DNA from: Cocleimonas sp.
Lineage (GTDB): Bacteria; Pseudomonadota; Gammaproteobacteria; Thiotrichales; Thiotrichaceae
Length of the DNA stretch: 43,414 bases
Direction: 5' to 3'
NCBI GenBank assembly: GCA_023146545.1
Contig: JAGLBW010000070.1
Coordinates: 1 to 43,414 of the forward strand
Of the stretch, positions 2,425 through 8,789 are shown piece after piece. Each line of letters starts with the position of its first letter. Positions within the stretch are counted from its first letter, which is position 1. A program made the position numbers and the translations under genes. The notes beneath the pieces are model-generated. The model worked only from the letters and a program-made list of their open reading frames with translations, was not told where the DNA came from and made no database searches.

Positions 2425-3102
2425 ATGAAACTATTTACTCGATATTTCCAATCTATTTTTATCATTCTATTATTTTCACTCTGCTCTAGTGCTGTCTTTG
2501 CCGCAGAACTCCCGTGGAGCAATAAACGCTACAGTCATTTTTCTGATCAAGAGCCACTCAGTGCTTTGCTATCAACATTAGCATCGTCTCAATCGACTCA
2601 AATTTCAGTGAGCAAACGCATTAAAGATATTGTTAGCGTACATTTTAAAGAACGAACGACCCGATCCATTTTTGATGAGTTAGTTAAAACACATGGCTTA
2701 ATTTGGTATTACGATGGTGGCGTACTTTATGTTTCTAAAAAGGATGAAATACAAACAGGTTCAGTCAGCCTTAAATATAAAACCAGCAAAGAATTTTCTC
2801 AATCATTGCGTCAAATGGGTATTTTAGACAATCACTTTTATTGGGTGGAATCTGAACAGGATAATGCGGTTTATTTTAAAGGGCCTGAACGATTTGTGAG
2901 TACAGTATTGAAAATGGTTAAAGTGATTGATAAGCGCCCCAACCGAGCGCGGATTTATAAATGGACGGATAAAGATGGTATTCCAAGTTTTACCTCTAAA
3001 ATGCCGAAACACTATAAAAATAGAAAGCTACGGGTTGTTGATATTGATAGCAACCTATCCCTTGTGGGTGATTCGAGTGAAATGACACGTTGGGATCAAT
3101 AA
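2425..3102 (+). CDS. T3SS secretin (SctC/YscC) N-terminal domain only, fused to a DUF4124-like C-terminal motif; secreted
   Basis: Signal peptide ends at VFA-AE. AELPWSN...GLIWYYDGGVLYVSKKDE...VYFKGPERFV is collinear with the YscC N-terminus (ELDWLP...NLVWYYDGNVLYIFKNSE...VYVSGPPRYL). The C-terminal RIYKWTDKDGIPSFTSKMP matches the DUF4124 signature. A GAAGGA RBS precedes the start. The ORF stops at 3102 and sctD starts at 3230, so there is no room for a pore domain. Confidence 0.7.
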   Translation: MKLFTRYFQSIFIILLFSLCSSAVFAAELPWSNKRYSHFSDQEPLSALLSTLASSQSTQISVSKRIKDIVSVHFKERTTRSIFDELVKTHGLIWYYDGGVLYVSKKDEIQTGSVSLKYKTSKEFSQSLRQMGILDNHFYWVESEQDNAVYFKGPERFVSTVLKMVKVIDKRPNRARIYKWTDKDGIPSFTSKMPKHYKNRKLRVVDIDSNLSLVGDSSEMTRWDQ

Positions 3103-3229
3103 TTATTCCAAATAATATTTATAATTTATTACATGGGGTTATCCGTGCCAGTTGTCTGAAAATATCCACCAACGATTAACGAATCCTTATGATAAAAATG
3201 AAAAGAATATATAAAAGGACACATGCAAA

Positions 3230-4519
3230 ATGGCAAGCAGTAAAAAACTATTTTCTCTTCGAGTCCTATCAGGAGAAAACATCGGAGCGCAAATAACACT
3301 TGAGCAAAAAATGCCAATTGTTGTTGGAAAATCCGCTGAATGTAATGTGATTTTTAGTAATGAAGAAATTGCTGATCGACACATTAAATTGGTACTAGTG
3401 GGTGACAAAATACATCTGCGCCCACTGGCTCAGCCTGTCTTTGTAGAAGGGAAGGATATTGGCATTCATGATGTCAAGCTAATTCCTTATCAATTGGTGA
3501 CCATTGGTAAAGTTGGTTTTTCGATTGGTGATGGTACAGGTCGATGGCCAAAAGTGGATGGTGAAGGTCGTGACCTTGACCATAAGCTCAATGGTGTAGG
3601 AAAGAAAGAAGGTGCTTTTTGGTGGGGTAAGTGGTTATTTATAATAGGTGTTTTGCTGTTGGTTTTAACTAATTTACAATATTTAAATAAGGATGGAAAG
3701 AATGTGCTAGCACTGTTGGGTTTACAAGATAGTGTAGAGGAAAAAGTGAATAAGGTTATTGCGGAAGCAAGGTTGTCAGAAGAATCCAACCTTTCTGTTT
3801 TGAAAATACCAGGAGGACGGGTCAATGTTAGTGGTCATGTTCAGAACAATGAGCAAAAACAACGTTTATTAAATCACATCCGACAAATTGAAGGGCGGGT
3901 TTCCTCTAACATTTGGGTCAATGCTGATATAGAAAAGGATGCATTACTGATAGCTCAAACGTTAGGAGAAGATCATGTTCAGTTTTCCTCTGATGGCAAA
4001 GGTGTTTTATCTGCGAAAGGTTACCTACAAAGTGATGCCGATTGGCGACGCTTACGTAGCAGTATTTTAGAAGATGTTGAAGGTATTGAATCGATTAATA
4101 AGACGGGCGTTCGTATTGTTTTAGAGTCATTACGAGCAGGATTAGAAGCACAAAACTTATCCGATAGAATACAGGTTCATCAAAAAGATAAGCAGTTTAT
4201 GGCAACAGGAAACCCAAGCCAAGAACAAGTCGTTACATGGCATAAAATAGTTAATGAAATCAGTAGTCCTGTGCAAGATTACTGGAAGATGATTGAAGAT
4301 TTCAATGTGTTAAGAACAAAGGCGTTTAAACTCGCACTAAGGAGCGCTAGTGTTGGAAAAGTCCCTTTCATTGTATCTAAAGACGGTAAACGATATTTAG
4401 AAGGTGCTCATTTAGGTGAGGGGTATTACCTTAAAAAAATTATGACTGATCATGTGGTGGTCAAGCGTAATGATATAGAGATCCCTATATATTTTGGAAA
4501 AAAAGGTGGTTTAGAGTGA
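3230..4519 (+). CDS. sctD: T3SS inner-membrane ring protein SctD (YscD/EscD/PrgH family)
   Basis: N-terminal FHA-like domain (LRVLSGENIGAQITL...VVGKSAECNVIF...IADRHIKL), a single TM segment (WLFIIGVLLLVLTNL) and a ~270-aa periplasmic region. At 429 aa it is close to YscD in size. It sits directly after the sctC-like gene. Confidence 0.75.
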   Translation: MASSKKLFSLRVLSGENIGAQITLEQKMPIVVGKSAECNVIFSNEEIADRHIKLVLVGDKIHLRPLAQPVFVEGKDIGIHDVKLIPYQLVTIGKVGFSIGDGTGRWPKVDGEGRDLDHKLNGVGKKEGAFWWGKWLFIIGVLLLVLTNLQYLNKDGKNVLALLGLQDSVEEKVNKVIAEARLSEESNLSVLKIPGGRVNVSGHVQNNEQKQRLLNHIRQIEGRVSSNIWVNADIEKDALLIAQTLGEDHVQFSSDGKGVLSAKGYLQSDADWRRLRSSILEDVEGIESINKTGVRIVLESLRAGLEAQNLSDRIQVHQKDKQFMATGNPSQEQVVTWHKIVNEISSPVQDYWKMIEDFNVLRTKAFKLALRSASVGKVPFIVSKDGKRYLEGAHLGEGYYLKKIMTDHVVVKRNDIEIPIYFGKKGGLE

Positions 4520-4722
4520 TGTTAGATATCGAAAGAGATCTTAATAACGATTTAACAGGTGAGTATAAAAAAGGGGTTCTACTTCAATTGAGAGATACTG
4601 GTGTTGAAGTGCGTAATGAATTAAATCAAGGCTTAGTTCCTGATGAATACAAGAAACTAAGTGATTTATTACAAGCGCTAGAAGCAAGCATTCAAATTGT
4701 TGAGCAATATGAAAAACCCTAA
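4516..4722 (+). CDS. sctE: YscE/SctE-like small needle co-chaperone
   Basis: 68 aa and all-helical. PDEYKKLSDLLQALEASIQIVEQY resembles the YscE C-terminus (KALESAIAIIHY). The start overlaps the sctD stop (GTGATG at 4516-4521), and the gene occupies the yscE position. Confidence 0.5.
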   Translation: MMLDIERDLNNDLTGEYKKGVLLQLRDTGVEVRNELNQGLVPDEYKKLSDLLQALEASIQIVEQYEKP

Positions 4723-7175: not shown

Positions 7176-7437
7176 GCAATTTTTTCAATCGTGCGCCTTG
7201 TCAGTTGATGCCTTTTTATAAATATTAGCAACTTAAACGATGGGAACGATGGATTTTAGCGCCAAGGCGTAGCATAAACGAGTTACAGCGATTCACTTCC
7301 TTTGTTTTTCTTCGATACTCAATTACTTGATTTTACGGCCGTTTGGAAAACATCCACAGTAATGATGGATTCAGTTTAATGTTCCTTTTTTCTCTTTTTA
7401 CTTGGAATCCGTACTAAAACCAATAATCTAAAAAATA

Positions 7438-8187
7438 ATGGGTTTCTCCATGGCAATGTTTGAAGATTCAATCAAAGTTGAAAATAATAAAGTAATAAAT
7501 GATGATAATCAATCCAAAAAGGATGAATTACCTTACCCAGTGTGGGAGTTTAACTATAAGCCTGAGCGTTATATTCACAAAAGTTGGCTATATGCTTTGC
7601 CTAATGGTGAAATACTTGAAAAGTTAATGAATGATGGTCGTGATACTGAACGTCTTTCAAACTATCTGTTGTCACAATTGGGTTTTAATGGAAAATTTTT
7701 CTTTGATTTTTCTAATATTTCTTCACAAGTTGCCTTATGGTCTGGGCATGAATTAAATAAACTAGTAATGTATACAGGGTTAGCATGTCACTGTAAGGAT
7801 ATTCGGCAGTTAATTATTAGAGAGCATGTTTTGGCACTTCGTGAAAGCATTGGAGGTGAAATGTACGATTTTGCGATGAAGCGTGTCCGCACGTTTATCG
7901 ATACCCAGCCTAATTTACTGGATTACGCTGATGATATTCGTCTCAATGATAGGATTGTTATTTCAGGGCTGGTTTGTTTACACAGCTATATGCGCCGTTT
8001 TCCTATTGCTTTTATGAAACGTGTCATTATTAAATTTCCACGAGATTGGTTTGATTATTTGCTGAAATATAGCCCTCAAATTTCTAAAGAGAAACATAAA
8101 CAAGTCGTTTGTTTAGAAGTAATAGAGAAAACGATTAGAGAGGTTGAGAAGGATAATCTTGCAACCAATAAAAAGGTGGAAGAATGA
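7438..8187 (+). CDS. sctK: T3SS sorting-platform protein SctK (YscK-like)
   Basis: Lies between sctJ and sctL. WEFNYKPERYIHKSWL resembles YscK FQLRFCPAAYLHLEQL. The stop overlaps the sctL start (ATGA). Confidence 0.5.
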   Translation: MGFSMAMFEDSIKVENNKVINDDNQSKKDELPYPVWEFNYKPERYIHKSWLYALPNGEILEKLMNDGRDTERLSNYLLSQLGFNGKFFFDFSNISSQVALWSGHELNKLVMYTGLACHCKDIRQLIIREHVLALRESIGGEMYDFAMKRVRTFIDTQPNLLDYADDIRLNDRIVISGLVCLHSYMRRFPIAFMKRVIIKFPRDWFDYLLKYSPQISKEKHKQVVCLEVIEKTIREVEKDNLATNKKVEE

Positions 8188-8789
8188 ATCATAGTTTCAT
8201 AAAAATCAAACCCTTAGAAACCGTTTTAATGTCAGGTGAAAAAATTATTAAAGCAAGAACTTACGCCTATTTTATTAAGGCAGAGGCGCTTGTTAGAGAA
8301 GCAGAAGTTGATAAAAAAAAAGCGGATTTAGCCGCGACTCAAGCTTTATTGAAAGCAGTTAAAAATGGTATTGCACAAGGTGAAGAAGCATCAAAGCAGC
8401 AATTGTCTGATCAAATGTTAAAGGTTTCTGTTGCGAATACAGCTCAACTGGAGCATGTAGAACAGAAACTAGCAGGCGTTGTTGTTGATGCGGTTAGAAA
8501 AATTATCGAGGATTTTGATGATAATGAATTAGCTTTATCTTTAGTTCGTAAGGGGTTAAAGCTTGTGGCTAAAAGCCAACGAGTGGTAGTGAGAGTTCAT
8601 CCAGAGGGAATGAATCAGTTAATGCAAAGCTTAATGAAACTAGAACATAATATTGAGTTTTTAGAAGTAATGCCTGATAAAAGTTTAGCACGGGGTGATT
8701 GTGTTTTAGAGTCAGATATTGGTATTGTTAAAGCAAGTGTGGAAGATCAATTACAACAGATTGAAAAAGCAATAAAAGCCGCCTTTTGA
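8184..8789 (+). CDS. sctL: T3SS stator protein SctL (YscL/FliH family)
   Basis: 201 aa with a central coiled-coil region and the FliH/YscL-type C-terminus ...ARGDCVLESDIGIVKASVEDQLQQIEKAI. Translationally coupled to sctK. Confidence 0.8.
   Translation: MNHSFIKIKPLETVLMSGEKIIKARTYAYFIKAEALVREAEVDKKKADLAATQALLKAVKNGIAQGEEASKQQLSDQMLKVSVANTAQLEHVEQKLAGVVVDAVRKIIEDFDDNELALSLVRKGLKLVAKSQRVVVRVHPEGMNQLMQSLMKLEHNIEFLEVMPDKSLARGDCVLESDIGIVKASVEDQLQQIEKAIKAAF

Follow-up and report, generated by a model that had tools for sequence, protein, structure and literature searches.

What is a block of nine type III secretion system (T3SS) genes that stands alone among unrelated genes? We address this question for positions 2425-8789 of a 43,414-nucleotide stretch of Cocleimonas sp. 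DNA (contig JAGLBW010000070.1 of GenBank assembly GCA_023146545.1), the whole of which is called the window here. A preliminary description of this DNA had reported an isolated basal-body and needle module at these positions, and our searches bear this out. Our analysis makes it probable that these genes encode one half (rings, rod and sorting platform) of a two-locus T3SS, in a family that has a periplasmic protein with N0-N1 and DUF4124-like parts, here called SctC', instead of a secretin. The conserved pore-less SctC', more than the isolation of the module, is the most interesting element. The list of open reading frames (ORFs) and searches with Pfam and NCBIfam profiles gave nine intact ORFs, all on the plus strand, in the order sctC'-D-E-(F-like)-G-(I-like)-J-K-L:

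2425..3102, + strand: sctC', short secretin-derived periplasmic protein of 225 aa (TIGR02516 partial, PF03958, PF21304, weak PF13511)
3230..4519, + strand: sctD, inner-membrane ring protein (TIGR02500, E 1e-25, full length and above the cut-off; PF16697, PF16693, PF21937, PF23893)
4516..4722, + strand: sctE-like small co-chaperone (PF08988, E 2e-6, above the cut-off; TIGR02501 below the cut-off; alternative ATG at 4519)
4949..5236, + strand: F-like small helical protein at the sctF position (by position only)
5357..5746, + strand: sctG-like TPR chaperone (TPR_19; NCBIfam matches to CdsG at E 5e-8, SctY and LcrH/SycD, all below the cut-off)
5808..6401, + strand: I-like protein at the sctI position (by position; conserved C-terminal ...GFKTLF..G)
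6552..7175, + strand: sctJ, inner-membrane ring lipoprotein with lipobox VNAC (TIGR02544, E 3e-63, 213 bits against a cut-off of 162; PF01514)
7438..8187, + strand: sctK, sorting-platform adaptor (PF06578 YscK, E 3e-17, above the cut-off; alternative start at 7450)
8184..8789, + strand: sctL, stator tethering the ATPase (TIGR02499, 101 bits against a cut-off of 79; NF005392, E 7e-44; PF02108)

The Ysc-type order C-D-E-F-G-(H)-I-J-K-L that had been proposed for the block is confirmed by the profiles as C-D-E-F-G-I-J-K-L; H is absent, and F and I are placed by position only. Both inner-membrane ring proteins are present, SctD and SctJ each exceeding the cut-off of their NCBIfam models, and so are the sorting platform and stator, represented by SctK (PF06578) and SctL (TIGR02499). 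SctD has an FHA-like cytoplasmic domain, one transmembrane segment, BON-like periplasmic domains and a Y4YQ_C end. The coupled starts described earlier are found as overlaps of stop and start at the sctD/sctE (GTGATG) and sctK/sctL (ATGA) junctions, each with GGTGG upstream as the ribosome-binding site. The gene call on an identical ENA contig starts the sctG-like gene at 5378 and the I-like gene at 5817. A scan for promoters and terminators performed no better than on shuffles.

We found no further sct genes elsewhere in the 43 kb window, nor in an extra 3.4 kb to its left on a near-identical contig; this contig is one of three independent ENA metagenome contigs (L001-L003) that carry the same proteins. 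The 26 other window ORFs of at least 100 aa, scanned against Pfam, are housekeeping, transport, insertion-sequence (IS) integrase or type II secretion system (T2SS) genes, and tblastn with SctQ/R/S/T/U/V/N/O of Thiothrix nivea gave no match in the window. These scans agree with the earlier statement that sctN, sctO/P/Q, sctRSTU, sctV and translocator genes are not adjacent to the block.

SctC' is a secretin-derived protein that ends before the pore. It matches only positions 2-139 of the 463 positions of TIGR02516 (E 1e-28, 100 bits against a cut-off of 238), together with Secretin_N (PF03958), T3S_SPI-1_N0 (PF21304) and, weakly, DUF4124 (PF13511). Its layout is a signal peptide, N0, N1 and a DUF4124-like C-terminal tail, without the N3, secretin and S domains. 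The AlphaFold2 (AF2) model of SctC' (pLDDT 80) superposes on the N0-N1 of EscC (3gr5), MxiD (6rwk) and InvG with target TM scores of 0.81-0.90 and rmsd of 1.7-2.2 A; nothing past N1 is matched, and a short beta-hairpin tail follows N1 in the model. The outer-membrane secretin of the injectisome core consists of N0-N1-N3-secretin, of which SctC' has N0-N1 only. There is no room for a degraded remnant of the pore domain, because the gap between sctC' and sctD is only 127 bp.

The short form is not peculiar to the window. All 107 SctC' homologue clusters found by homology search are 200-264 aa long, with named sources in Thiothrix nivea, T. caldifontis, T. lacustris, Ca. Thiothrix spp., Thiolinea, Thiofilum flexile, Leucothrix mucor and Cocleimonas. 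Their alignment has a signal peptide, conserved N0-N1 and the tail motif WxD..G....P, in which W, D, G and P are invariant. The N3 and secretin part of canonical SctC, used in tblastn against 16 family loci, found no match, while the canonical control loci and the gspD gene of the window all matched. The short SctC' is a conserved family feature, neither a local truncation nor the result of decay. In full-text literature searches we found no published description of a T3SS in Thiothrix, Thiotrichales or Leucothrix that matches this family, which is distinct, found mostly in Thiotrichales and apparently undescribed.

The preliminary description had reported no pore secretin in the locus. This holds for the T3SS; the window does contain a full-length secretin gene, gspD (36367-39141), which encodes a T2SS GspD (TIGR02517, 604 bits) and lies 27 kb from the T3SS block. 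It is the sole secretin-domain gene of the window and belongs to the T2SS operon gspD-gspE-gspF at 36367-41968. This GspD is unusually long (924 aa): its secretin domain is preceded by an N0 domain and five Secretin_N stretches, against three in canonical GspD. Among DUF4124 proteins, the only one that we found characterised is TfpC of Neisseria, which acts in the periplasm in type IV pilus assembly (PMC7593972). We regard the TfpC parallel as a lead, not evidence, for a possible docking of SctC' onto a pilus-type or T2SS-type secretin.

The block is isolated and under selection throughout the window clade, whose SctC' proteins are 63-74% identical to that of the window and are encoded in the same nine-gene block. 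The block stands alone in every clade case examined, in five unrelated housekeeping neighbourhoods: the window itself, L007/L008 (a 113 kb JGI contig), L009 (metagenome-assembled genome (MAG) GCA_054045325.1), L174/L175, and L176-L178 from a hydrothermal-vent metagenome. The flanks of the block have no similarity between clade genomes. Five divergent genomes have all nine genes intact and free of frameshifts and internal stops, while synonymous sites across these genomes are saturated (pS 0.54-0.82). Seven of the nine genes (C', D, E, G, J, K and L) have dN/dS values of about 0.02-0.2, and evolution is faster in the F-like and I-like genes, where the values are 0.1-0.56. With every gene undamaged and dN/dS far below 1, decay can be ruled out; selection has long maintained the block, in line with the earlier argument against simple decay.

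In relatives outside the clade the block is joined to the rest of a T3SS. In T. nivea (GCA_000260135.1) the short sctC' lies inside a single, otherwise core-complete T3SS locus, which has sctJ, I-like, G, F-like, E, D and C' leftward, then a rightward run that opens with a gene for a TGL-domain protein and goes on with sctQ, R, S, T, U, nfeD, sctV, sctN and sctO, and at the other end sctL and sctK, again leftward. A 498 kb contig of 39% GC (L179) carries the 19-gene order sctQ-R-S-T-U-nfeD-STAS-sctV-sctN-sctO-sctC'-D-E-F-G-I-J-K-L, all colinear, with a SctC' of 224 aa and no secretin pore domain in the cluster. L179 is the closest lineage found outside the window clade for most module proteins, T. 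nivea scoring slightly higher for SctC'. sctV-N-O also has a gene for a short SctC' protein (208-248 aa) beside it in L013, a MAG contig of 3.3 Mb from a gammaproteobacterium, in the Thiotrichales MAGs L034 and L049, and in three metagenome contigs (L098, L102, L107). The T. nivea cluster with 10 kb on either side has no secretin, ruler, gatekeeper or translocon gene; Pfam searches likewise found no tip, translocon, SctW gatekeeper or SctP ruler in the T. nivea or L179 clusters (+-10 kb) or in the window.

The export gate and ATPase genes that the window lacks are found on separate contigs from the same assemblies as the module of another clade member. A 2.2 kb AT-rich contig (L103) with nfeD-STAS-sctV and the module contig L178 share one source, JGI sample 3300028400, and four further contigs (L180-L183) were reached through the STAS protein of L103. 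These four have the order sctQ-R-S-T-U-[DUF3368/UPF0175 pair, minus strand]-nfeD-STAS-sctV-sctN-sctO (partial), with 37-39% GC and all genes intact. In L180-L183 and L103, SctV and SctN exceed the cut-offs of the non-flagellar equivalog models. The contigs were recovered from the following sources, module contigs with the identical SctC' (P0018) being given for the three assemblies compared:

ENA ERZ23491057: second-locus contig L180; module contig L185 with P0018
ENA ERZ27262687: second-locus contig L181; module contig L177 with P0018
JGI 3300028400: second-locus contig L103; module contigs L178/L184 with P0018
ENA ERZ23491050: second-locus contig L182
MAG GCA_027032435.1: second-locus contig L183

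The second locus and the P0018 module co-occur in all three assemblies compared. The two contig sets share no sequence, and upstream of sctC' the P0018 module contig has 10 kb of housekeeping genes, not sctO. Both sets are nearer to L179 than to T. nivea in 10 of the 12 proteins compared, and their relationships broadly agree. This is strong evidence, of co-occurrence and not of physical linkage, that the P0018 clade member has a two-locus T3SS. The preliminary description had left the choice between a split locus and a module that is reduced or repurposed, and had proposed that relatives be compared in synteny. With the block fused to sctQRSTU-V-N-O in T. nivea and L179, isolated in the window clade and accompanied by a second block in the assemblies of a clade member, the split locus is the better supported of the two. 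The same description had held that finding the remaining sct genes, with a full-length secretin, in another locus would make this an ordinary split T3SS. Most of the remaining sct genes do occur at a separate locus in the assemblies of the clade member, and no related locus was found to have a full-length T3SS secretin. With this result and the conserved short SctC', the system is more than an ordinary split T3SS.

Some candidates for the clade SctV were rejected. P0229, an AT-rich representative picked by amino-acid composition, is equidistant from all family members, and its locus is Ysc-like (yscX-yscY-sctV-N-O). A pattern scan of genome contigs with P0229 gave at least 600 matches, swamped by the universal motif DGMPGKQM, and yielded L013, L034 and L049; a metagenome scan with specific P0229 C-terminal patterns gave no match. 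L103 was obtained in a metagenome scan with KQMSIDSD, a motif that turned out not to be lineage-specific, being shared by numerous flagellar FlhA proteins and further SctV proteins. A representative-library search placed Thiothrix SctV under a Comamonadaceae representative, and the P0228 search gave only Ramlibacter and Acidovorax SctV.

The proteins encoded at the sctF and sctI positions evade recognition by sequence. Neither the F-like (4949-5236) nor the I-like (5808-6401) protein has a Pfam or NCBIfam match, and PDB profile searches gave chance matches only. A hidden Markov model (HMM) of the F-like family finds the same position in every short-SctC' locus tested where the region is available, and also weakly matches the I-like proteins. 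The I-like family HMM matches the same position in L013, L034, L049, L102, L107 and L179, and the C-terminus ...GFKTLF..G is conserved across the family. A single-sequence AF2 model of the F-like protein gives one long helix (residues 36-94) and no hairpin. By position and weak mutual similarity only, the two may be labelled as putative needle subunit (SctF) and putative rod (SctI).

How would such a machine work? We infer that the window genome carries the second locus elsewhere, and the split may have arisen by a break between sctO and sctC'. As in the established injectisome structure, SctD and SctJ would build the inner-membrane rings around the SctRSTUV gate. In the Salmonella and Shigella needle complexes N0-N1 contacts the C-terminal domain of SctD, and SctC' could form a periplasmic ring on this domain in the same manner. 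SctK and SctL would connect the SctQ pods and the SctN ATPase. SctE and SctG might chaperone the small F-like and I-like substrates, holding the F-like subunit before export, and the I-like protein may be a rod or adaptor. SctK, SctL, SctE and SctG are not known to act where SctN, SctQ and secreted subunits are missing. As there is no pore domain, the substrates would go no farther than the periplasm or sheath, or would cross the outer membrane by another channel. A wider reading, which we hold tentatively and at slightly less than even likelihood, is that this family, mostly of Thiotrichales with some other gammaproteobacteria, is an injectisome-derived T3SS that has lost its secretin pore, keeps only the N0-N1 ring with a DUF4124-like tail and works unlike the characterised injectisomes. 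It would deliver to the periplasm or sheath, or dock through SctC' on a borrowed secretin of a T2SS or type IV pilus, and would come in two unlinked halves in the window clade.

Several points weigh against the two-locus reading. In the organism of the window itself the second locus was not recovered, and the P0018 member is only 57-80% identical to it in the module proteins, so that the window lineage may have lost the locus later. The metagenome assemblies show that the two loci co-occur, which is not the same as physical linkage. None of the family loci yielded an outer-membrane component, SctP, SctW or a translocator. The F-like and I-like assignments are positional, the two proteins being only weakly similar to each other.

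Among the other explanations, a dedicated secretin gene far from the cluster has some claim to attention, though we think it unlikely. Such a gene would give a normal pore, the SctC' ring would be an accessory and the machine a conventional injectisome. Our family scans covered the loci and not whole genomes, split secretin arrangements are conceivable, and the hosts do encode other secretins such as the gspD of the window. However, the tblastn search with the canonical N3 and secretin part was blank in the 16 family loci and positive in its controls, a separate N0-N1 protein would be redundant since canonical SctC includes its own N0-N1, and even the complete clusters show no needle-length ruler, gatekeeper, tip or translocon genes. 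Slightly less probable still is that the window lineage has lost the gate and ATPase, the SctC'-D-J rings and SctK-L now serving as an envelope scaffold or as partners of another machine. The block is indeed under selection as a unit, and no sct partner lies within 5-10 kb in the five clade contexts or in ~47 kb around the window copy. Moreover, there is no AT-rich SctV among the best 120 relatives of T. nivea SctV, all of which are at least 60% identical to it. This last absence is accounted for by the identity of the clade SctV of the second locus, which at 55% to T. nivea SctV falls below that 60% floor. A repurposed module also fits poorly with a clade member that has the missing genes, intact, in the same assemblies, and active export is implied by the conservation of the chaperones SctE and SctG and of the F-like and I-like substrates.

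Decay of a formerly complete injectisome locus, with a truncated secretin and deleted neighbours, has next to no probability. It would explain why SctC' has 225 aa against about 500-650 aa in canonical systems and why the remaining genes of the system are missing locally. On the other side stand the freedom from frameshifts and internal stops in five genomes in spite of saturated synonymous sites, the low dN/dS, the length of SctC' kept in 107 clusters with an invariant C-terminal motif, and the intact coupled starts and ribosome-binding sites. We thus retain the two-locus T3SS with a pore-less SctC' as the best explanation.

The neighbours of the block were as described earlier. On the left, a UvrD-like helicase gene on the minus strand starts at 1976 and is divergent from sctC'; its product has 929 aa, encoded by window 1-1976 (-) and continuing in L001 2636-5425. 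UvrD-like helicases also occur near the modules of L174 and L009, one with ankyrin repeats, and tblastn found no similarity between these and that of the window. On the right lies a 185-aa ORF at 8834-9391 (-) whose AP2 match is sub-threshold (E 0.003, 18 bits against a cut-off of 33), followed by mfd at 9943-13491 (-). The helicase and the AP2-like ORF were rejected as parts of the module, neither having a counterpart in any relative. The AP2-like ORF is probably a local insertion, because no counterpart stands beside the module in relatives. Farther away, an IS-type integrase gene (rve) at 34781-35782 lies between a Lon-substrate-binding-domain gene and the T2SS operon, and a DsrE/DsrF-like sulfur-relay gene at 28085-28552 fits a sulfur-oxidising Thiotrichales host.

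The family loci contain further genes of interest. An nfeD-like membrane-protein gene is kept between sctU and sctV, where Ysc has yscX/yscY, and the AT-rich lineages add an anti-sigma antagonist-like STAS gene:

L179, 4466-5561: nfeD(/STAS) region
L180, 5445-6372: nfeD(/STAS) region
L098, 811-1143: nfeD(/STAS) region
L011, 9446-9973: nfeD(/STAS) region

The DUF3368/UPF0175 pair between sctU and nfeD (L180 4297-5093, minus strand) is likely a toxin-antitoxin system. In T. nivea (L011 4150-5406) a TGL gene (PF20085, protein-glutamine gamma-glutamyltransferase-like) with a Gln/Ser-rich N-terminus lies directly upstream of sctQ, the Ysc place of sctP, and a copy 50% identical to it lies just past sctO in L034 (12372-13361). 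The TGL protein could be a substrate or a replacement of the ruler. Large proteins with RTX repeats and an animal-haem-peroxidase domain, 53% identical to each other, are encoded just downstream of sctL in L174 of the window clade (14421-17015) and of sctO in L092, an unrelated Ysc-like locus (4978-7419). A sibling vent sample (JGI Ga0256840_1001521, L104) has an AT-rich T3SS locus of 36% GC with sctD-E-G ... sctV-Q-R-S-T ... sctN and a SctD identity of 28%; several distinct T3SSs coexist in these communities.

Among known systems the gene order is that of the Ysc virC operon yscA-L (Yersinia, Pseudomonas Psc, Aeromonas Asc). Both share C-D-E-F-G-(H)-I-J-K-L with recognisable SctD, SctE, SctJ, YscK and SctL, and both have a small F-like gene between the genes of the SctE-like co-chaperone and the TPR SctG-like chaperone. 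Unlike in Ysc, SctC' ends after N1 and a DUF4124-like tail, yscH is absent and the F-like and I-like proteins are unrecognisable by sequence; the family clusters have nfeD and STAS before sctV instead of yscX/yscY, and no sctP, sctW, tip or translocon was seen. The likeness to chlamydiae proposed in the preliminary description extends to the scattering of one machine's structural genes over unlinked loci, as we suppose for the window clade, and not beyond it. Chlamydiae have the full-length secretin CdsC, a needle and a translocon, whereas only two loci are supposed here. The flagellar T3SS is similar in having no secretin and a homologous MS-ring/FliH/FliI/FlhA core. It differs in that the second-locus SctV and SctN pass non-flagellar equivalog models, flagellum-specific genes are absent, and SctD, SctK and SctC' are present.

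Injectisomes are defined by a continuous conduit across both membranes, the secretin being a conserved core part. In this family, a large one under selection, the ring-forming N0-N1 of the secretin is kept and the pore dropped; its hosts are mainly sulfur bacteria, free-living or epibiotic, which are not known to be pathogens. The family makes two questions testable, the role of a lone N0-N1 ring and the exit of substrates from the periplasm. Isolated sctC-L blocks in the Thiotrichales group should not be annotated as pseudogenised. By the detection rule quoted by Abby and Rocha (2012), a secretin must be among the core genes; rules of this kind could miss or misclassify such systems, or could have hidden them.

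The closest functional precedent is the 'needleless' T3SS* of Myxococcus xanthus (mxan_2434-2464), a non-flagellar system with gate, ATPase and sorting platform and without secretin, needle and translocon (PMC12075869). It is proposed to hand its substrates to the Kil Tad pilus, which has its own secretin (PMC12075869). The absence of a secretin pore and of a translocon is common to both. T3SS* is marked by having no secretin-derived gene and no needle genes and by its dependence on a Tad (Kil) machine, whereas the present family retains a gene for N0-N1 of the secretin, as well as E, G and the F-like and I-like genes. Its hosts are Gammaproteobacteria, mostly Thiotrichales, and not predatory myxobacteria, and a Tad or T2SS machine is here a hypothetical partner. 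If our reading is true, the family would be a second natural T3SS without its own outer-membrane channel, independent of the Myxococcus T3SS* and yet with a visible piece of the secretin.

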